The position numbers and the translations under genes are program-made. From Escherichia coli (GTDB taxonomy: Bacteria; Pseudomonadota; Gammaproteobacteria; Enterobacterales; Enterobacteriaceae): a stretch of DNA of 64,000 nucleotides. Within the stretch, counting starts at the first letter, position 1; the number at the start of each line of letters is the position of its first letter. The stretch is from assembly GCF_029227855.1 (NCBI RefSeq), contig NZ_CP074356.1; one strand, given 5' to 3'. The notes below the pieces were generated by a model, which was not told the DNA's origin, searched no databases, and saw only the letters and a list, made by a program, of their open reading frames with translations. Below are positions 2,851 through 26,819 of this stretch, one piece after another.

Positions 2851-4107
2851 TTAGTGGCTCACCGTCTGTGTGCCTGTCGGGACACGAACGTGTTTATATT
2901 TGAACATCGCCATGAACGCGAAGGCCAGAACCACGGAGTAACCAGCGAAAATCAACCATACGGTCTGCCAGTCGGTAATGCCGTTTTGGGTGTACATCTC
3001 AACAACTTTACCGCTCACGATGCCGCCAAGGATACAGCCGAAGCCGTTAGTCATCATCAGGAACATCCCCTGCGCACTGGCGCGAATTGCCGGGCTAACT
3101 TCTTTTTCGACAAACACCGAACCAGAGATGTTGAAGAAGTCGAATGCGCAACCGTAAACGATCATCGACAGTACCAGCAGTACAGTACCGAACGGAGTCG
3201 GGTCGCCGTAAGCAAACAGCGCAAAACGCAGGATCCACGCCACAATACTGATCATCATTACGTTCTTAATACCGTAGCGGCTTAAGAAGAACGGGATAGT
3301 CAGAATGAACAGGGTTTCAGAGATCTGCGAAATCGACATGATGATTGACGCATGCTGCACAATAAAGCTGCTGGCAAACATCGGATCTTTGTCGAAGCTG
3401 TGCAGGAAGGTATTACCGAACATGTTGGTAATCTGCAGTTCCGCGCCCAGCAGCATTGAGAAGATGAAGAAGATTGCCATACGCTTGTTTTTAAACAGCG
3501 CGAATGCATCGAGGCCCAGCAGGGTTGTCCAGCTCTGATTCGCTTGCTGTTTAGCAACCGGAATATGCGGCAGAGTCAGGGTAAACAGAACCAGAATGGC
3601 GGAAAGTGCTGCGCCAATATACAGCTGCATGTGGCTTAATTCGAAGCCAGACAGGCTCACCACCCACATTGCCATGATAAAGCCGATGGTGCCCCAGATA
3701 CGGATTGGCGGGAAGTCAGTAACGATATCCATCCCGGCATTTTGCAGGCGATAGTAAGAGATGGTGTTGATTAACCCAAGCGTTGGCATATAAGCAAACG
3801 AGTTAATCAATATCACAAGGAACATCGCCTCCGGCGTCGTGACCTGTGCCGCCATGAACAGCGTGATAGCGCCAATGGTGTGGCAAATGGCATATACCCA
3901 TTTCGCACTTAACCATTTGTCGGCCACAATCCCCAGCAGCGCAGGCATAAATACCGCGGCGATACCCAGTGAGCTATAAACTGCGCCGATAGAAGCACCG
4001 TCAAACTTCAGGGTAACAAACATATAGGAGCCGAGGGTCGTCAGCCAACTTCCCCACAGACAGAACTGCAGAAAAGAGAGGATTTTCAGCTGCAGCTTAA
4101 GATTCAT
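2851..4107 (-). CDS. nupG: Nucleoside:H+ symporter NupG (418 aa)
   Basis: ORF 2851..4155; protein from MNLKLQLKILSFLQFCLWGSW matches NupG; start trimmed. Confidence 0.92.
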   Translation of the reverse strand: MNLKLQLKILSFLQFCLWGSWLTTLGSYMFVTLKFDGASIGAVYSSLGIAAVFMPALLGIVADKWLSAKWVYAICHTIGAITLFMAAQVTTPEAMFLVILINSFAYMPTLGLINTISYYRLQNAGMDIVTDFPPIRIWGTIGFIMAMWVVSLSGFELSHMQLYIGAALSAILVLFTLTLPHIPVAKQQANQSWTTLLGLDAFALFKNKRMAIFFIFSMLLGAELQITNMFGNTFLHSFDKDPMFASSFIVQHASIIMSISQISETLFILTIPFFLSRYGIKNVMMISIVAWILRFALFAYGDPTPFGTVLLVLSMIVYGCAFDFFNISGSVFVEKEVSPAIRASAQGMFLMMTNGFGCILGGIVSGKVVEMYTQNGITDWQTVWLIFAGYSVVLAFAFMAMFKYKHVRVPTGTQTVSH

Positions 4108-4308: not shown

Positions 4309-5415
<1,107 letters not shown>

Positions 5416-8956: not shown

Positions 8957-9672
8957 TTAATTGTGCACAGAAAACCCCCAGCTAGGCTGGGGGTTCCGGA
9001 AAGCTTTCAGCTTTGAGCCAGTTATTAAAACCCCTTTTGATTTGTTAAAACACTTTGCGGTCTGGCAACTGCAAGTGTCAAACAAGAAATCAAAAGGGGG
9101 TCCCAATGGGGAACGAAAAGAGCTTAGCGCACACCCGATGGAACTGTAAATATCACATAGTTTTTGCGCCAAAATACCGAAGACAGGTGTTCTACAGAGA
9201 GAAGCGTAGAGCAATAGGCAGTATTTTGAGAAAGCTGTGTGAGTGGAAAAGCGTACGGATTCTGGAAGCTGAATGCTGTGCAGATCATATCCATATGCTT
9301 GTGGAGATCCCGCCCAAAATGAGCGTATCCGGGTTTATGGGATATCTGAAAGGGAAAAGCAGTCTGATGCTTTACGAGCAGTTTGGTGATTTGAAATTCA
9401 AATACAGGAACAGGGAGTTCTGGTGCAGAGGGTACTACGTCGATACAGTGGGTAAGAACACGGCGAAGATACAGGATTACATAAAGCACCAGCTTGAAGA
9501 GGATAAAATGGGAGAGCAGTTATCGATTCCCTATCCGGGCAGCCCGTTTACGGGCCGTAAGTAACGAAGTTGGATGCAAATGTCAGATCGTGTGCGCCTG
9601 TTAGGGCGCGGCTGGTAAGAGAGCCTTATAGGCGCATTTGAAAAACCTCCGGCTATGCCGGAGGATATTTAT
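8957..9672 (+). mobile_element. IS200 insertion sequence (IS200/IS605 family), about 0.7 kb; ends approximate
   Basis: Contains a 152-aa Y1 transposase essentially identical to IS200 TnpA as I recall it. Left-end terminator hairpin cccccagc-tag-gctggggg (about 8973-8993), long-range pairing ccccttttg/caaaagggg that would occlude the tnpA RBS, and right-end hairpin cctccggc-tat-gccggagg (about 9647-9665). Confidence 0.8.
9106..9564 (+). CDS. tnpA: IS200 transposase TnpA (HuH Y1 tyrosine transposase, 152 aa)
   Basis: ORF 9055..9564; protein from MGNEKSLAHTRWNCKYHIVFAPKYRRQVFY...HIHMLVEIPPK...YIKHQLEED matches IS200 TnpA (HuH motif HIH). Confidence 0.9.
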   Translation: MGNEKSLAHTRWNCKYHIVFAPKYRRQVFYREKRRAIGSILRKLCEWKSVRILEAECCADHIHMLVEIPPKMSVSGFMGYLKGKSSLMLYEQFGDLKFKYRNREFWCRGYYVDTVGKNTAKIQDYIKHQLEEDKMGEQLSIPYPGSPFTGRK

Positions 9673-11989: not shown

Positions 11990-12030
11990 TTGCCGGATAA
12001 TATAAAAAGTTATCCGGCAAATTATTTTTT
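11990..12030. terminator. Bidirectional terminator between convergent yggM and TRAP permease gene
   Basis: tgccggataa-tataaaaag-ttatccggca followed by attatttttt. Confidence 0.6.
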
Positions 12031-13330
12031 ACATTAGCCCTAGTAGCTGTGGAATGAACAAGGATATTTGCGGGATGTAAGTGATCATCATCAACGCGAT
12101 TAACAATGCGGCATAAAATGGCAGCAATGGTTTGATCAAATGTTGAATCTTCACACCTGAAATAGAACAACCAACAAATAGCGCACTACCCACCGGCGGT
12201 GTTAACAGCCCAATACAAAGGTTGGCCACCATCATAATACCGAAATGTACCGGATCCATTCCCAGCTCTTGTGCAATCGGCAAGAAGATTGGTGTGAAGA
12301 TTAGTACAGCCGGTGTCATGTCCATAAAGATGCCGACAATTAATAAGACGATATTAATCAGCAGCAATATGATCAGTGGGTTATCAGAAATCCCCATCAA
12401 CGCGTCGCTGATCATATAAGGAATATCAGCATTGGTCATTGACCAGGACATGCCCACGGAAAAACCGATCAACAGTAATACAATCGAAGTGGTAACAACC
12501 GATTCCAGAATCAGTTTGGGTAAATCGCGCCATTTTACTTCCCGGTAAATCAGCACCGAGAGAATAAATGTGTAGACAACGGCAATCGCAGACGCTTCAG
12601 TTGCGGTAAAAATGCCGCCCAGAATGCCGCCCATTACAATGAACACCAGAAGCAAACTTGGTAAGGCATCCAGAAACGCTTTACAGGCCTGAGCAAAGGT
12701 TGCTCTTTCTGAAAGTGGGTAGCCACGGCGTTTAGCAATAATGCCGCAGACTATCATTACCGCAAGACCCATTAAGATCCCTGGCAAATATCCCGCCATA
12801 AATAGCGATGCTACAGAAACGCCGCCAGCTGTCAGGGAAAACACAATTAACACGTTTGAGGGCGGTATCAGTAATCCAGTAATACAGGATGAGACGTTTA
12901 CAGCGGTAGAAAATGCCGGATCATAACCTTGTTTGGTCTGAATGGGATTCAGTGTGCCACCAACGGCAGCAGCTGCCGCAACGGCTGAACCAGAAATGGA
13001 ACCAAACATCATATTCGCCAGGACGTTCACATGACCAAGTGAACTAGGAACCCGACCAACCATTACCTGGGCGAGGTTAATCAAACGTATCGCAATACCG
13101 CCGCTGTTCATCAGCGTTCCGGCAAAGATGAAAAAGGGGATTGCCAATAGGGCAAAGTTATCCAGTCCATTAGCCAGTCGCTGCGAAACAGTGATTGCCG
13201 CGATATCCCAGGGAAACATCAACAGCATTGAAGCTACAGTGGCAATACCGATTGAGAACGAAATGGGCACACCAATAAAGACCAGCACAAAAAAACAGCC
13301 AAATAGTGTAAGCGCAATATAACTATCCAT
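12029..13330 (-). CDS. TRAP transporter large permease subunit (DctM family, 433 aa)
   Basis: Highly hydrophobic 433-aa ORF, MDSYIALTLFGCFFVLVFIGVPISFSIGIATVASMLLMFPWD...; typical DctM architecture. Start overlaps the stop of the upstream small permease. Confidence 0.85.
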   Translation of the reverse strand: MDSYIALTLFGCFFVLVFIGVPISFSIGIATVASMLLMFPWDIAAITVSQRLANGLDNFALLAIPFFIFAGTLMNSGGIAIRLINLAQVMVGRVPSSLGHVNVLANMMFGSISGSAVAAAAAVGGTLNPIQTKQGYDPAFSTAVNVSSCITGLLIPPSNVLIVFSLTAGGVSVASLFMAGYLPGILMGLAVMIVCGIIAKRRGYPLSERATFAQACKAFLDALPSLLLVFIVMGGILGGIFTATEASAIAVVYTFILSVLIYREVKWRDLPKLILESVVTTSIVLLLIGFSVGMSWSMTNADIPYMISDALMGISDNPLIILLLINIVLLIVGIFMDMTPAVLIFTPIFLPIAQELGMDPVHFGIMMVANLCIGLLTPPVGSALFVGCSISGVKIQHLIKPLLPFYAALLIALMMITYIPQISLFIPQLLGLM

Positions 13331-13842
13331 TAACTGGCCTCCTGCGCAGGTTGTTTCAGTTGTTGAATGCTTTGATTAATAAAACACAAGGCATAAAACA
13401 TCATCACCACTCCACTTAATGGCAGAATGATATATACGTATCCCATCGGTATTTGCATCGCGGCAGATACTTGTGATGTTGCCAGCGTTTTATCAATTAA
13501 TTTCAGGCCACCAGTCACAATGACCGAACCGGCAAAACCTAAAATGAGAATGTTAATGACTATACTAAGAAGTAATTGCTTGCGCTTATTCAGGGCGAGA
13601 GCAAATAAATCGATAGAGAGATGTCTCTGCGCGCCGACGGTATATGCAGCACCTAATAATCCTACCCAGATCATCAAAAAGCGTGCCAGCTCATCGGTTA
13701 ATGTACTTGGCTGGTTAAGTACGTAGCGGCTAAATACTTGCCAGACTACGCATACAACCAGAGCAAGCATTACGGCGACAGAAAACGCGGCAATGACGCG
13801 GTCTACCGCAAGTTTCAGGCGGTTAAATATCATTGTAAGCAT
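13330..13842 (-). CDS. TRAP transporter small permease subunit (DctQ family, 170 aa)
   Basis: 170-aa four-TM protein MLTMIFNRLKLAVDRVIAAFSVAVMLALVVCVVWQVFSRYVLNQPSTLTDELARF..., between the SBP and the large permease. Confidence 0.8.
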   Translation of the reverse strand: MLTMIFNRLKLAVDRVIAAFSVAVMLALVVCVVWQVFSRYVLNQPSTLTDELARFLMIWVGLLGAAYTVGAQRHLSIDLFALALNKRKQLLLSIVINILILGFAGSVIVTGGLKLIDKTLATSQVSAAMQIPMGYVYIILPLSGVVMMFYALCFINQSIQQLKQPAQEAS

Positions 13843-13877
13843 CCTGGAAAATCAGGGCCAGAGACTGGCCCGAAATA

Positions 13878-14864
13878 TTATTGAGCAGCGTTGTCGAATT
13901 TCTCTAACAAAGCAGCTTGTTTTGGATCTTTTTTGAAGTCGTCAAACAGAGGTTGAACTGCGGCACGGAATGGGGCTTTATCAACCTTAACGATTTCACC
14001 ACCCATAGCTTTCGCTTGAGCACGTGTGTCAGCGTCAATTTTTTCCCACAATTTTTGTTGATAAGCTTCGGATTTCTTCGCCGCTGTTTCGAGGATTTGT
14101 TGCTGTTCTGGGGTTAATTTATTCCATGTTTTGGTGGAGATAACCAAAAAGTCAGGAATTGAGGCATGTTCATCTTCAGAAAAGACTTTGGCAATTTCGA
14201 TATGTCGAGTCTGCACCCAGGAAGGCACGTTATTTTCTGCGCCATCTACTACACCTTGCTGCATCGCAGTATAAACTTCGCCAAATGAAATTGGAGTGGG
14301 TGAGCCACCCATCAGTTCAATCATTTTGATGGTGGTCGGGCTTGGCTGAACACGAATTTTCAGCCCTTTAAGATCTTCTGGCTTAGTAATCGGTTTTTTC
14401 GCATAGAAACTGCGTGTACCCGCTACATAAGCTGATAAAGCAAAAAAGCCTTTATCTTTTGTTGAATCCATAATTTCTTTACCAACTTCACCAAAAACCA
14501 CTTTGTTGAAGTGCGCCTGATCTTTAAATAAGAACGGCAAATTATAGATAGCATAAATATTATCAAAAGACTCCAGATCACTGGCGGAACCTTTGGTCAT
14601 ATCCAGTGCACCATTTTGCAACAACTCCATAGTTTCTCGCGCATTACCCATCTGGCTGCTGGGGTAAATACGGATCACCATATTACCTTTTGACAGCTGT
14701 TTTACTTCTTTCGCCAGCTTTTCAAAACTCTGATGTACAACATGACTTCTTTCCAGGTTGTGTGCTAACTTTAACGTCACTTTTTCTGCGGCGTTTACGC
14801 CAGTGCTAACCAGAGCCAGCAAGGATGCGCAGACTAATGAGCGGGTAAATGACCTCATTTTCAT
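13878..14864 (-). CDS. TRAP transporter periplasmic substrate-binding protein (DctP family, 328 aa)
   Basis: Signal peptide MKMRSFTRSLVCASLLALVSTGVNA, DctP-family fold; a conserved Arg (AGTRSFY) is consistent with carboxylate binding. Substrate unknown. Confidence 0.85.
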   Translation of the reverse strand: MKMRSFTRSLVCASLLALVSTGVNAAEKVTLKLAHNLERSHVVHQSFEKLAKEVKQLSKGNMVIRIYPSSQMGNARETMELLQNGALDMTKGSASDLESFDNIYAIYNLPFLFKDQAHFNKVVFGEVGKEIMDSTKDKGFFALSAYVAGTRSFYAKKPITKPEDLKGLKIRVQPSPTTIKMIELMGGSPTPISFGEVYTAMQQGVVDGAENNVPSWVQTRHIEIAKVFSEDEHASIPDFLVISTKTWNKLTPEQQQILETAAKKSEAYQQKLWEKIDADTRAQAKAMGGEIVKVDKAPFRAAVQPLFDDFKKDPKQAALLEKFDNAAQ

Positions 14865-15178
14865 AAAAAAACTCCCTGTTGAAGAATGGAAATTGGTTGA
14901 TATCTAATTGTGCTTATCAGTGCTTTGTGCGACAAATTGGTTAACCTGTCTGACAACTTGTCTATGTTTATCACAACTTGAAATAAAGTCAGAAATTAAA
15001 TATTAATTTTGTGCGCCAGGTTGTACATGTTTATAATCAATAAATGATGAGTAAATATTCAGTAAATATATATAATAAATATCGTCGATATTTATTCAGT
15101 AAGAAATATATTTTTGCCGAAGTTAATTAACGGGGGGGTTAAAAGAAGTGATTAATGCGCCCGCAGGCGCATTAATGA
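14865..15178 (-). promoter_or_regulatory. AT-rich promoter/operator region of the TRAP operon, with direct repeats and a 10-bp-arm palindrome at the hemW 3-prime end
   Basis: Very AT-rich by eye; repeated TATTCAGTAA (about 15054 and 15089) and ACAACTTG (about 14957 and 14979); palindrome attaatgcgc-ccgcag-gcgcattaat at about 15152-15177. Confidence 0.45.
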
Positions 15179-16315
15179 TTACTCAGCGAGGAATAATTCA
15201 AGAAGTGAGTTTAAGAATAATTTACCATGCTTGGTTATCTGCCAGTAATCCGCACATTCTGTGAGATAACCTTGAGCGATAGCCTCGTCTAACTGAGAGC
15301 GAATAACTTCTTCAGAAAGGCCAGTATATTGGCTAAACTCCACGCGCGGCGCGGCCTCAAGCAGACGGAAGCGATTCATAAAGAACTCAAACGGTTTATC
15401 TGCAGCTTCGACATCACGCTGGCTTTCCAGATATCTTCCCTGCATAAAACCACGCGGATGACGCGTTTTGGTGGTACGCAGAATGCGACCATCCGGGAAG
15501 GTGACTTTGCCGTGCGCGCCGCAGCCAATACCAATGTAGTCGCCAAATCGCCAGTAGTTGAGATTGTGCTGGCACTGATAACCTGGTTTGGCGTAAGCGG
15601 ATGTTTCATACTGCTGATAGCCCGCTGCGGTTAATAACTGATGCCCCTGTTCGAATATATCCCACAACGCATCGTCGTCCGGCAGCACCGGCGGGCGAGA
15701 GCCAAACAGCGTATTAGGTTCGATGGTCAGTTGATACCAGGAAAGATGCGGCGGATTCAGTTCAATAGCCTGGCGCAGATCGCCTAGCGCCTCTTCCAGT
15801 GATTGATCCGGCAGCCCATGCATCAAATCAAGGTTAAAGCTACGTAACCCTAAACCGCTCGCCAGCTTTGCCGCTCGTTTCGCTTCTTGCGGGCCATGAA
15901 TGCGCCCAAGTCGTTTCAGCTTTTCTTCGCTAAAACTCTGCACACCAATAGAGATGCGGTTCACACCAGCACGCTGATAATCGACAAAGCGATCGGCTTC
16001 AACCGTACCAGGGTTCGCTTCCATAGTAATTTCTGCATCCGCTGCCAGCGGCAAACGCGCACGCACGCCGTCCAGCAGCGTTTGCATCGCCGGGCCGGAA
16101 AGCAGGCTCGGCGTACCACCGCCAATAAAGATTGTCTGCACTTCACGGCCCTGAGCGTAAGCCACGTCGTTGTCCAGATCGTTAAGCAGATGCTGAACAT
16201 AATCGTCGTGCGGCACTTCTCCTTTCAACGCGTGAGAGTTGAAATCGCAGTACGGGCATTTCTGCACGCACCACGGGATGTGAATGTAGAGACTCAGCGG
16301 CGGTAATTTAACCAT
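15179..16315 (-). CDS. hemW: Radical-SAM heme chaperone HemW (YggW, 378 aa)
   Basis: [28 protein letters not shown]... CxxxCxxC radical-SAM motif. Confidence 0.92.
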
Positions 16316-25664: not shown

Positions 25665-26819
25665 TTACTTCAGACCGGCAGCATCGTGCAGCAGCTGCGC
25701 TTTGTCGGTTTTTTCCCACGGGAAATGTTCGCGACCAAAGTGACCGTATGCTGCGGTTTCTTTGTAGATCGGGTGCAGCAGATCCAGCATCTGAATCAGA
25801 CCGTATGGACGCAGGTCAAAGAACTCACGTACCAGCAGAGTCAGTTGTTCAGAAGGCACTTTCTCGGTACCGAAAGTTTCCACCATGATAGAGGTCGGTT
25901 CAGCCACGCCGATTGCGTAGGAAACCTGAATTTCACAACGATCGGCCAGGCCAGCAGCAACGATGTTTTTCGCGACATAACGTGCTGCGTAGGCTGCGGA
26001 ACGGTCCACTTTTGATGGATCTTTACCAGAGAATGCACCACCACCGTGACGTGCCATGCCGCCGTAGGTATCAACGATAATTTTACGACCAGTCAGACCG
26101 CAGTCACCCATCGGGCCACCGATAACAAAACGACCGGTCGGGTTGATGAAGAATTTGGTGGCAGAAGTCAGCCATTCAGCCGGCAGAATTGGCTTGATGA
26201 TCTCTTCCATTACCGCTTCTTGCAGCGATTTCTGGTCGATCTCTTCAGAGTGCTGAGTGGAAAGCACGACAGCATCAATACCAACGATTTTGTCGTCGTC
26301 ATACTGGAAAGTCACCTGGCTTTTCGCGTCCGGGCGCAGCCACGGCAGAGTGCCGTTTTTACGCACTTCAGCCTGACGCTGTACCAGACGGTGTGCATAG
26401 GTGATAGGTGCTGGCATCAGCACGTCGGTTTCATTGGTTGCGTAGCCAAACATCAGACCCTGGTCACCCGCGCCCTGTTCCAGCGGATCGGCACGGTCAA
26501 CGCCCTGGTTGATGTCAGGAGACTGTTTGCCGATAGCGCTCAGAACCGCACAGGAGTTAGCGTCAAAGCCCATGTCGGAATGCACATAGCCAATTTCGCG
26601 AACGGTGTTACGGGTGATCTCTTCGATGTCTACCCAGGCGCTGGTGGTGATTTCGCCGCCAACTAAAACCATGCCGGTTTTTACGTAGGTTTCGCAAGCA
26701 ACGCGTGCTTTCGGATCCTGTTCGAGGATCGCGTCTAAAACGGCATCAGAAATTTGGTCAGCAATTTTGTCAGGATGCCCTTCAGAGACGGACTCGGACG
26801 TAAAAAGGTGTTTTGCCAT
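25665..26819 (-). CDS. metK: S-adenosylmethionine synthetase (384 aa)
   Basis: ORF 25665..26831; protein from [43 protein letters not shown]; start trimmed. Confidence 0.95.

Follow-up and report, generated by a model that had tools for sequence, protein, structure and literature searches.

The gap between hemW and the TRAP transporter operon beside it appears to be an ordinary control region, in which a stem-loop most likely ends the hemW transcript and is followed by the predicted promoter of a hexuronate-uptake operon. We consider it probable that the two parts are a terminator-type stem-loop for hemW and a TRAP promoter under control of the hexuronate repressor ExuR. This reading draws on an ExuR motif match that is unique in the window (the whole 64,000-nucleotide stretch of Escherichia coli DNA analyzed), its conservation in orthologous promoters, the homology of the transporter, and gene context in Aeromonas, from which we infer ExuR/UxuR binding, the position of the promoter, and inducibility.

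Gene Neighborhood and Composition

12029-14864, minus strand: TRAP operon, comprising P (binding protein, 13878-14864), Q (small permease, 13330-13842), and M (large permease, 12029-13330)
15179-16315, minus strand: hemW (TIGR00539, 471.8 bits), last gene of a yggS-yggT-yggU-rdgB-hemW run

Positions 14865-15178 (314 bp) are exactly the gap from the ATG of the TRAP binding-protein gene (14864, minus strand) to the hemW stop codon (15179-15181). The earlier note had described the interval as the control region of the TRAP operon, and so it appears to be, except that the palindrome closest to hemW belongs to a stem-loop at the 3' end of hemW. Its description as AT-rich is borne out, with a GC content of 0.275-0.31 over ~200 bp in the gap vs. 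about 0.52-0.55 in hemW and rdgB; the TRAP genes are ~8-12 GC points lower than their flanks. The HemW protein is 98% identical in amino acids to that of K-12, and the last 57 nt of the gene carry 17 nucleotide differences from K-12 (counted by eye), almost all of them synonymous. An Rfam E-value scan of 14700-15400 gave nothing near the gathering score, and the top match, STnc130 (24.9 bits against a threshold of 55), was treated as chance.

A Terminator-Type Stem-Loop Most Likely Follows hemW

15151-15176, minus strand: terminator-like hemW stem-loop, with an 11-bp stem (AUUAAUGCGCC/GGCGCAUUAAU) and the loop UGCG
15141-15150, minus strand: T-rich tail CACTTCTTTT; CACTTCTTCC in B1-type alleles
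15132-15138, minus strand: poly-C tract, C7 here and 7-11 long among E. coli alleles

The palindrome ATTAATGCGC-CCGCAG-GCGCATTAAT that had been noted beside hemW is present at 15151-15176, 2 nt past the stop codon. It had been said to lack an adjacent T-tract, but on the hemW-sense strand CACTTCTTTT comes straight after the stem. A terminator scan requiring at least 5 T in 8 bases, a rule that the window allele's CACUUCUUUU passes, calls the stem-loop with 11 pairs (5 of them G-C) and a loop of 4. The T-tract is interrupted in the window allele, with CAC coming first so that it begins 3 nt past the stem; it degenerates to CTTCTTCCCC in many alleles, and the B1-type tail CACTTCTTCCCC is weaker than that of the window allele, with 4 T in any 8-base window of CACUUCUUCCCC by our own count. 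Because of this interruption and degeneration, the hairpin may terminate weakly or chiefly protect the 3' end. The surrounding positions 15128-15150 vary in 48% of columns among 11 alleles.

Folding the palindrome as RNA, a check that the earlier note had named, yields a strong stem-loop: the hairpin alone folds at -18.5 kcal/mol, and in a 101-nt context the folding z is -4.35, with 0/200 shuffles folding as well. Just 1 of its 26 columns is variable among 11 alleles, and that sole natural stem variant, a C to T change, keeps pairing as G-U on the hemW-sense RNA only. All 16 syntenic species in which the hemW end was located (16/16) have a stable hairpin no more than ~15 nt from the hemW stop codon; the stem sequences differ among them, so that structure is conserved and sequence is not, and the hemW-TRAP intergenic length in syntenic species is constant at 293-315 nt. 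Citrobacter braakii has at the equivalent place a canonical GC stem followed by UUUUCUUCU.

These observations bear on whether the palindrome might instead be the DNA site of a protein, as had been proposed earlier, or purely an RNA-stability hairpin and not a terminator. Its arms do form a perfect 10-11 bp palindrome of a kind rare by chance (P = 0.007; dinucleotide shuffles of the 314 bp give perfect inverted repeats with arms of at least 10 in 0.7% and of at least 11 in 0.3%), and the 3-nt offset of the T-tract from the stem, together with its weakness in B1-type alleles, would suit such a reading. Hairpins of unrelated sequence at the equivalent position in other genera, however, indicate structure and not sequence recognition, and the T-rich tail, the strong fold, the G-U wobble kept on the sense RNA, the GC stem of C. 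braakii, and the call of the terminator scan all speak against it, leaving it improbable in our judgment.

A stem-loop of the intrinsic-terminator type is thus the most likely identity of the element, as predicted from its sequence. Like intrinsic (Rho-independent) terminators, it has a GC-cored stem directly after the last stop codon of a gene run, then a U-rich tail, and its position and structure are kept across genera; unlike them, it has an interrupted U-tract (CACUUCUUUU), replaced by C-rich sequence in many alleles, and a lower stem of A-U pairs. The 11-bp stem-loop and its tail would end or stabilize the transcript of the run that hemW terminates.

The palindrome also recalls REP/BIME elements, which are imperfect or perfect palindromes after convergent gene ends and which, at the matching chromosomal position, fill the hemW-yggM gap of K-12. 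Unlike those, it lacks the K-12 REP sequence (by eye). Had it been a REP-like element it should recur genome-wide, a possibility raised previously; it is found at one locus per genome, solely in genomes that carry the TRAP operon (1480-1484 of them; the two "places" counted in each are presumably both strands of one palindrome), and the REP-like reading was rejected.

A Predicted ExuR Operator Array Precedes the Binding-Protein Gene

14962-14980, minus strand: O0, weak ExuR-like box CAAGTTGTGATAAACATAG (5.8 bits), with the second ACAACTTG copy and a conserved TGTGA (14971-14975)
14942-14960, minus strand: O1, predicted strong ExuR-type operator CAAGTTGTCAGACAGGTTA (17.4 bits), with the first ACAACTTG copy
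14934-14951, minus strand: U1, UxuR-like palindrome AGACAGGTTAACCAATTT with core GGTTAACC and a 2-nt spacer, E. coli-specific, overlapping O1 and O2
14921-14939, minus strand: O2, box CAATTTGTCGCACAAAGCA with core TTGT-CGC-ACAA (5.6 bits), 21 bp from O1
14907-14935, minus strand: best predicted sigma-70 promoter, -35 TTGTCG (14930-14935), 17-nt spacer, -10 CACAAT (14907-14912)
14889-14907, minus strand: conserved box TTAGATATCAACCAATTTC; AGATATnnACCA in other genera
14872-14876, minus strand: Shine-Dalgarno sequence GGGAG, the same in all genera compared

Two copies of ACAACTTG, previously reported ~22 bp apart, are present at 14953-14960 and 14973-14980 with a spacing of 20 bp. The pair is unremarkable as a mere repeat, because 32% of dinucleotide shuffles of the 314 bp give an 8-mer repeat within 40 bp. 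What sets the copies apart is that each is the right half of a predicted operator of FadR/GntR type, O1 and O0, respectively. The suggestion in the earlier note that repeats here are operator half-sites of an unlinked regulator therefore finds support for this pair, with ExuR as the best-fitting candidate.

We scored the region with an ExuR matrix trained on 45 unique curated 19-mers from the PMC4494728 supplement, on which the training sites reach 7.8-25.1 bits (median 18.6) and K-12 sites 13.5-23.6. O1, at 17.4 bits, is the best of 63,982 window positions (runner-up, 13.4), and 0.4% of shuffles of the region reach its score. It has the central 13-mer AAGTTGTCAGACA in common with the matrix consensus, and as AAGTTGT-CAG-ACAGGTT it conforms to the published motif definition of TKGT/ACMA, a 3-nt GT-AC spacing, and A/T-rich flanks (PMC4494728). 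In a divergent E. coli allele, the flank of O1 is shifted toward the consensus and the score rises to 19.7 bits. O0 and O2 (5.6-5.8 bits) score lower than the weakest curated site (7.8). The UxuR-like box AAATTGGTTAACCTGT resembles the K-12 gntP, uxuA, and uxuR sites and scores 14.4 bits on a six-site matrix, on which chance matches in the window reach 14.3-14.9. The box at 14889-14907 is much like the K-12 uxaC ExuR site AAAGTTATCACACCAATTTCC with a spacer one base shorter, and has just 2.4 bits on the ExuR matrix, which assumes a 3-nt spacer. A 9-mer repeat, AAATTGGTT (14890-14898 and 14934-14942), had been overlooked.

Like the K-12 ExuR operators of the uxaB, exuT, uxaCA, and exuR promoters, O1 is a palindrome of 19 bp in which A/T flanks surround a TTGT-N3-ACAA core. 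The central GTC-N-GAC of O1 (CAAGTTGTCAGACAGGTTA) recurs in the uxaB sites GAAGTTGTCTGACATCTTT and AAGGCTGTCTGACAACTTA, and a TGTGA element stands just upstream of the box here, an arrangement seen also at exuT. Unlike the K-12 operators, O1 fronts an accessory TRAP transporter that is absent from K-12, belongs to an array that also comprises weaker in-phase boxes and a pair with 2-nt spacers, and lies outside the curated site list (PMC4494728), being predicted from sequence only.

The predicted sigma-70 promoter is the top match, at 8.4 bits with 8/12 positions matched, and would start transcription near 14900; a stricter promoter scan did not call it at 14907-14935. We propose that the last ~120 bp before the binding-protein gene contain the promoter of an accessory hexuronate TRAP uptake operon, controlled by the unlinked repressor ExuR, possibly with its paralogue UxuR. 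O1 would serve as the strong operator and O0 and O2 as weaker in-phase boxes at intervals of 20-21 bp. Together with the two 2-nt-spacer boxes (14934-14951 and 14889-14907), they would overlap or flank the -35, the -10, and the start, such that bound repressor could occlude RNA polymerase until released by hexuronate-derived inducers.

Conservation of the Boxes across Species

ExuR-like boxes occur at ~-95 and/or -74 upstream of nearly all of the 40+ orthologous TRAP loci, and both are present in most syntenic loci. Equivalent ExuR-type boxes are thus kept in >20 species, among them members of Citrobacter, Klebsiella, Kluyvera, Buttiauxella, Pluralibacter, Phytobacter, and others, and in a 21-species alignment the columns of both box cores are invariant. 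O2 is the positional equivalent of the TAATATGTCATACAGAAA box conserved in other genera. The boxes of Klebsiella pneumoniae reach only 8.7 bits on the ExuR matrix, and the curated ExuR site list (PMC4494728) has no site at the TRAP locus for that species.

The Transporter Probably Takes up Hexuronates

The binding protein belongs to the DctP family of TRAP receptors. Among its best solved relatives (E = 1e-59 to 1e-68) are 4X8R (glucuronate-bound) and 4N8Y (galacturonate-bound), the ligands of both confirmed indirectly, and 4N15. The last was the template for modeling the glucuronate-binding STM3169 protein of Salmonella Typhimurium, which binds D-glucuronate with a Kd of ~0.2 uM and shows a thermal shift with galactonate (PMC7660916). 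That study makes no mention of ExuR or UxuR. The E. coli operon resembles STM3169-STM3171 in pairing a binding protein of DctP type with Q and M permeases and in having 4N15 as a common solved relative (PMC7660916). Genes for catabolism or regulation are not linked to either operon. The Salmonella operon presumably occupies a different chromosomal locus, not beside hemW, judging from the LT2 gene numbering.

Gene context points the same way. The orthologous operon of Aeromonas rivuli is flanked by uxaC, uxaB, a gene for a UxaA-like dehydratase, and exuR, and carries ExuR boxes of 15.3-15.8 bits. The TRAP loci of Aeromonas and Pantoea sp. IMH are like that of E. coli in having an orthologous binding protein (60% identical) and upstream ExuR-type boxes of 15-16 bits; they differ in that the annotated regulator and catabolic genes of A. 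rivuli are physically linked, whereas in E. coli and its relatives the operon stands alone downstream of hemW. A hexuronate of the D-glucuronate/D-galacturonate type is the probable substrate class, as predicted from these sequence relationships.

The motifs of FadR-subfamily regulators are alike, having TKGT/ACMA cores in common (PMC4494728), and from sequence alone another family member is possible. On this alternative, the TGT-N3-ACA boxes would be operators of LgoR, DgoR, or an uncharacterized GntR regulator, and the operon would respond to another sugar acid. The galactonate shift of STM3169, the weak Klebsiella boxes, and the resemblance of the second box in other genera (ATGTCATACAG) to the DgoR-type TTGTCATACAA are in its favor. 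O1, however, scores near the curated ExuR median and has a core almost identical to that of the ExuR sites upstream of uxaB (CTGTCTGACAACTT), it does not fit the E. coli DgoR core TGTAnTACA, and the operon is physically linked to exuR and uxaCBA in Aeromonas; we regard another regulator of this subfamily as distinctly unlikely. FadR itself was rejected, its matrix giving 4.0 bits at O1 against a training minimum of 7.4, as were E. coli DgoR, GlcC, LldR, and PdhR, whose cores differ from O1 (inspection only). Paired or complete sites for ArgR (around TGAAT motifs), Fur, KdgR, IHF, or sigma-54 were not found by eye.

The Distal AT-Rich Half Evolves Rapidly

15056-15065, plus strand: first TATTCAGTAA copy; TATTCACTAA in most other sampled alleles and more diverged in two
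15093-15102, plus strand: second TATTCAGTAA copy, overlapping the right arm of the AT palindrome
15074-15096, no strand assigned: perfect 11-bp-arm AT palindrome AATAAATATCG-n-CGATATTTATT (P = 0.003), missed by the earlier note

The two copies of TATTCAGTAA reported previously at a spacing of ~35 bp are present at 15056-15065 and 15093-15102, 37 bp from start to start. The exact pair is private to the window allele through one SNP, 10/10 other alleles differing at one copy, and the repeat is absent from the other genera compared, which argues against its proposed role as an operator. Among dinucleotide-shuffled versions of the 314 bp, 2.2% contain an exact 10-mer direct repeat within 40 bp and 12% contain one at any distance within the region. 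The repeat is probably meaningless. It sits in the most variable segment of the region, the distal AT-rich part, where 26% of columns vary among 11 alleles. The AT palindrome there is broken in 4/11 alleles, is not conserved in the other genera compared, and has chance-level matches only elsewhere in E. coli genomes. We take the repeat and the AT-rich distal half for a fast-evolving spacer, in which H-NS binding is possible.

From its composition, it had been suggested that the gap as a whole might be a horizontally acquired, AT-rich promoter subject to H-NS silencing; direct repeats and palindromes would then serve for nucleation or binding. The low GC content of both the gap and the TRAP genes is in keeping with this. 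Each arm of the AT palindrome (15074-15096) carries CGATATTTA, an 8/10 match to the high-affinity proV H-NS site TCGATATATT, giving two inverted copies; such matches are weak evidence in AT-rich DNA, where the motif is low in information content, and the palindrome that carries them is broken in some alleles and lies in the most variable part.

The operon is found in just 1480/5426 complete E. coli genomes, with REP elements where it would be in K-12, and the TRAP and K-12 haplotypes meet within hemW at ~30% nucleotide divergence. Because of that divergence, lineages may have exchanged the locus by homologous recombination, and the presence/absence polymorphism and the diverged junction are compatible with allelic exchange of this kind. 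The order rdgB-hemW-P-Q-M is, however, conserved in 12 other species (Enterobacteriaceae), with TRAP protein identities tracking those of HemW, and no mobility genes were seen at the operon junctions, which counts against horizontal acquisition. H-NS binding would also be compatible with ExuR control. Overall, we consider silencing of an acquired promoter unlikely as the main explanation, if the least unlikely of the alternatives.

It is very improbable, finally, that only a promoter is functional and that the repeats and palindromes all arose by chance in AT-rich DNA. The shuffling frequencies of the 8-mer and 10-mer repeats and the single private SNP behind the exact TATTCAGTAA pair agree with chance, but the score of O1 and its uniqueness in 64 kb, the rarity of perfect inverted repeats with arms of at least 10, and the boxes and hairpin position kept across genera do not.

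Possible Rewiring of the Spacer in E. coli

15108-15120, minus strand: frame of a TCG-N7-CGA box conserved in other genera; E. coli keeps the left half (CTTCGG) only
15007-15016, minus strand: box GCGCACAAAA, 152 nt before the ATG, nearly invariant across genera

In other Enterobacteriaceae, the spacer holds a TCG-N7-CGA box (T-N11-A type), two CRP-like boxes exactly 50 bp apart, and two ExuR boxes. Relative to the promoter predicted in those genera, the CRP-like boxes would be located near -41.5 and -91.5. The GCGCACAAAA box, always 50 bp upstream of the TGTGA box, is a CRP-like right half-site in these genera (with low confidence on function). A rough CRP matrix gives matches at the conserved positions in other genera and <2.5 bits in E. 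coli, where both CRP-like boxes are weak and the TCG-N7-CGA box is minus one half. The position of the predicted E. coli promoter also differs from that predicted in Klebsiella and Kluyvera. We consider it unlikely, though conceivable, that the ~300-nt spacer is a multi-input regulatory module rewired in E. coli. The ancestral -10 would then have been replaced by the UxuR-type palindrome GGTTAACC, and the AT palindrome with its H-NS-like motifs would have appeared. If true, this would document turnover of both promoter and regulators at an accessory hexuronate transporter of ExPEC lineages such as ST131.

Significance

Under the preferred reading, O1 is a newly predicted target of the known ExuR regulon. 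The annotation gains a probable substrate class and regulator for the operon and an explanation of the palindrome as the hemW 3' hairpin; the current understanding of how such regions work is unchanged. Hexuronates (glucuronate and galacturonate) are gut and host-derived carbon sources, and ExuR has already been implicated in colonization by EHEC and Citrobacter rodentium. If the prediction is true, roughly one in four complete E. coli genomes, those of ST131 and further clinical lineages among them, would encode a second hexuronate uptake system, one of high-affinity type, that shares its repressor with exuT and uxaCA and is missed entirely by K-12-based regulon maps.

Locus and Distribution

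The 314-bp gap between hemW and the TRAP operon is an ordinary intergenic region, in which a terminator-type hairpin is joined to a promoter probably under repressor control. The minus-strand gene order is yggS-yggT-yggU-rdgB-hemW, followed by the gap and the three-gene TRAP operon, with which yggM is convergent:

12029-13330, minus strand, TRAP large permease (M)
13330-13842, minus strand, TRAP small permease (Q)
13878-14864, minus strand, TRAP binding protein (P)
14865-15178, hemW-TRAP gap, 314 bp
15179-16315, minus strand, hemW

The region is 100% identical to that of E. coli strain MRSN346647; of 5426 complete genomes of E. coli, 1480 carry it, in one copy each. K-12 has no TRAP operon, and REP/BIME palindromes fill its hemW-yggM interval. 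Directly 3' of the M stop codon, an inverted repeat (ttgccggataa...ttatccggcaa, ~11990-12025) is probably a terminator common to M and the convergent yggM. Between yggN and ansB this haplotype has a gene for an IS200C transposase (~9106-9564; 3242-3700 in comparison segment L001), and in strain 582 an IS1 element (L002 3740-5114) stands in place of P, Q, most of M, and the promoter to ~15065, leaving only the hemW-proximal 114 bp of the region.

The operon had been described as horizontally acquired, a view at odds with its distribution: the order rdgB-hemW-P-Q-M is kept in 12 other species, and identities to E. coli track those of hemW (84-95% for P and M, 88-93% for hemW). The operon lies about 8-12 GC points under the neighboring hemW and rdgB in every host genus examined, and we found no mobility genes at its junctions. 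This is what one would expect of an operon long resident in the family and lost from K-12-like lineages, rather than of a foreign island that arrived recently. Between the TRAP-positive haplotype and K-12 there are 17 differences in the final 57 nt of hemW (15179-15235; 5348-5404 in the K-12 haplotype, L003), of which 16 are synonymous; this places the presence/absence boundary inside hemW. In Escherichia sp. L008 the junction has another breakpoint. Evidently, allelic exchange occurred here by homologous recombination.

A Terminator-Type Hairpin at the hemW 3' End

All the motifs named in the earlier note are found in the region, as is its AT-richness (GC down to 0.275-0.31). The palindrome lies at 15151-15176, 2 nt past the hemW stop; inverted repeats whose perfect arms reach 10 or more arise in 0.7% of region shuffles. 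It was said to have no adjacent T-tract, but on the sense strand the stem runs into CACTTCTTTT, and a terminator scan calls the element, with 11 pairs and a 4-nt loop. As hemW-strand RNA it folds into a stem of 11 bp capped by a UGCG loop (-18.5 kcal/mol; folding z = -4.35 for the 101-nt context). Only 1 of 26 hairpin columns varies among 11 diverse Escherichia alleles, and this sole variant, a C-to-T change, keeps pairing on the sense RNA, as G-U, and would leave an A-C mismatch on the opposite strand.

A stable hairpin within about 15 nt of the hemW stop is present in all 16 syntenic species in which the end of hemW was located, including Citrobacter, Kluyvera, Klebsiella, Pseudocitrobacter, and Phytobacter, with stem sequences that are unrelated from genus to genus; in C. 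braakii the same position holds a classic GC stem with UUUUCUUCU after it. The E. coli palindrome is confined to one locus, solely in TRAP-positive genomes, and is therefore not REP-like, as the earlier note had allowed it might be. We conclude that it is a 3' terminator-type hairpin of hemW. Because the hairpin tail in B1-type alleles is weaker (CTTCTTCCCC, then a poly-C run of variable length), termination efficiency may be modest, and protection of the hemW 3' end is a possible alternative role. The poly-C run 3' of the hairpin (15132-15138, G7 on the plus strand) is 7 to 11 bases long, depending on the E. coli allele, and the T-tract beside it varies together with run length.

Substrate Class and a Candidate ExuR Operator

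Among solved structures, the binding protein has its closest relatives in a group of DctP receptors (E = 1e-59 to 1e-68) that includes 4X8R (glucuronate-bound), 4N8Y (galacturonate-bound), and 4N15, the modeling template for the glucuronate-binding Salmonella STM3169 (PMC7660916). The operon is thus a probable hexuronate transporter, and this homology led us to hexuronate regulators for the ACAACTTG repeats. ExuR and UxuR are FadR-type GntR proteins that recognize palindromes flanked by A/T, in which the cores are TKGT/ACMA and the GT-to-AC spacing is 3 nt (ExuR) or 2 nt (UxuR); several curated comparative-genomics ExuR sites end in ...ACAACTTG or ...ACAACTTA (PMC4494728 and its supplement).

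The ACAACTTG pair lies at 14953 and 14973, spaced 20 bp apart (about 22 in the earlier note), and an 8-mer repeat within 40 bp arises in 32% of region shuffles. The boxes containing the two copies, together with a third box and the predicted promoter, are as follows:

14907-14912, predicted -10, CACAAT
14921-14939, O2, third box, core TTGT-CGC-ACAA, 5.6 bits, 21 bp from O1 on the side opposite O0
14930-14935, predicted -35, TTGTCG
14942-14960, O1, strong ExuR-type box, minus-strand CAAGTTGTCAGACAGGTTA, 17.4 bits
14962-14980, O0, weak box with the second ACAACTTG copy, 5.8 bits

Scores are from an ExuR matrix built on 45 unique curated sites (training median 18.6 bits; K-12 sites 13.5-23.6). 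O1 is the top match among 63,982 window positions (runner-up 13.4), and its score is attained in 0.4% of region shuffles. With copies in O1 and O0, ACAACTTG is a recurring right half-site of in-phase candidate operators, so the proposal that the repeats are operator half-sites is supported for ACAACTTG; it is not supported for TATTCAGTAA, whose exact pair is private to this allele.

Other regulators were considered for O1: a FadR matrix gives it 4.0 bits, and by inspection the cores of E. coli DgoR, GlcC, LldR, and PdhR do not fit. Elsewhere in the window, the top match of a small UxuR-type matrix (AATTTGGTCAGCAATTTT, 26751-26768, 14.9 bits) is probably due to chance, given that the matrix holds 6 sites.

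The best sigma-70-like match in E. coli, TTGTCG-17-CACAAT (8/12 positions), is the top of a weighted scan and is missed by a stricter one. O2 and an E. coli-specific GGTTAACC box overlap its -35, O1 lies just upstream of the -35, and a conserved box at 14889-14907 lies over the predicted start; the latter closely resembles the K-12 uxaC ExuR site, although its spacer is one base shorter. A AAATTGGTT repeat that had been overlooked occurs at 14890 and 14934. Klebsiella, Kluyvera, and Phytobacter have another predicted promoter, TTAAAG-17-TAATAT, with O1 inside the spacer and O2 over the start. At these predicted positions, both geometries are those of a repressor-occluded promoter.

Conservation of the Promoter Boxes

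Among 44 orthologous loci, one genome per species, most have upstream ExuR-like boxes at about -95 (consensus AAAGnTGTCnGACAACCAG) and, 21 bp away, about -74 (TAATATGTCATACAGAAA). An alignment of 21 species shows no variation in either box core, nor in a TGTGA element, a GCGCACAAAA box, a AGATATnnACCA box, or the Shine-Dalgarno sequence. In E. coli itself, conservation is good over the proximal 116 bp (5-12% of columns variable), and a divergent allele has the O1 flank shifted toward the consensus, which brings the O1 score to 19.7 bits. The orthologous operon of Aeromonas rivuli (binding protein 60% identical) has ExuR boxes of 15.3-15.8 bits, and its neighbors on the flanks are uxaC, uxaB, a UxaA-like dehydratase, and a gene above the NCBIfam ExuR equivalog cutoff.

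The GCGCACAAAA (15007-15016) and TGTGA (14971-14975) elements, nearly invariant across genera, anchor CRP-like sites that are always 50 bp apart, center to center; with a rough CRP matrix, both are hit in many genera (up to 12 bits) but not in E. coli (below 2.5). In other Enterobacteriaceae a palindromic frame, [CT]TCG-N7-CGA[AG], of the T-N11-A (LysR-box) type, keeps a fixed spacing, about 25-40 nt past the hemW hairpin in L009-L038; at the corresponding E. coli position (15108-15120) the left half alone is left. In Edwardsiella a divergent LysR-family gene lies beside the TRAP operon.

The AT-Rich Distal Half

The TATTCAGTAA pair lies at 15056 and 15093, spaced 37 bp apart (about 35 in the earlier note); a 10-mer repeat arises in 2.2% of region shuffles within 40 bp and in 12% anywhere in the region. 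All 10 other alleles sampled differ at 15056 (most have TATTCACTAA, two are more diverged), so the exact pair is peculiar to this allele and depends on a single SNP that separates it from the common one. Segment 15024-15127 has 26% variable columns and gave no convincing alignment between genera; in the neighboring T-tract and poly-C stretch the figure is 48%. The segment contains a second feature that had been overlooked:

15074-15096, perfect AT palindrome with 11-bp arms

Most E. coli genomes have this palindrome intact (1347 with a 100% match); it is disrupted in 4 of the 11 diverse alleles and absent from the other genera aligned. Each arm holds CGATATTTA, which has 8 of 10 bases in common with the high-affinity H-NS site of proV; H-NS binding at the distal half is plausible, but the motif is weak evidence in such DNA.

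Implications

The combined explanation, hairpin and ExuR-type promoter, seems to us fairly probable, with the hairpin part rated higher and the identity of the regulator lower. The TRAP operon probably belongs to the ExuR regulon and possibly also to the UxuR regulon, as a target absent both from K-12 and from the curated ExuR site list in the PMC4494728 supplement. The useful outcome is a specific, testable assignment of transporter substrate class and regulator.
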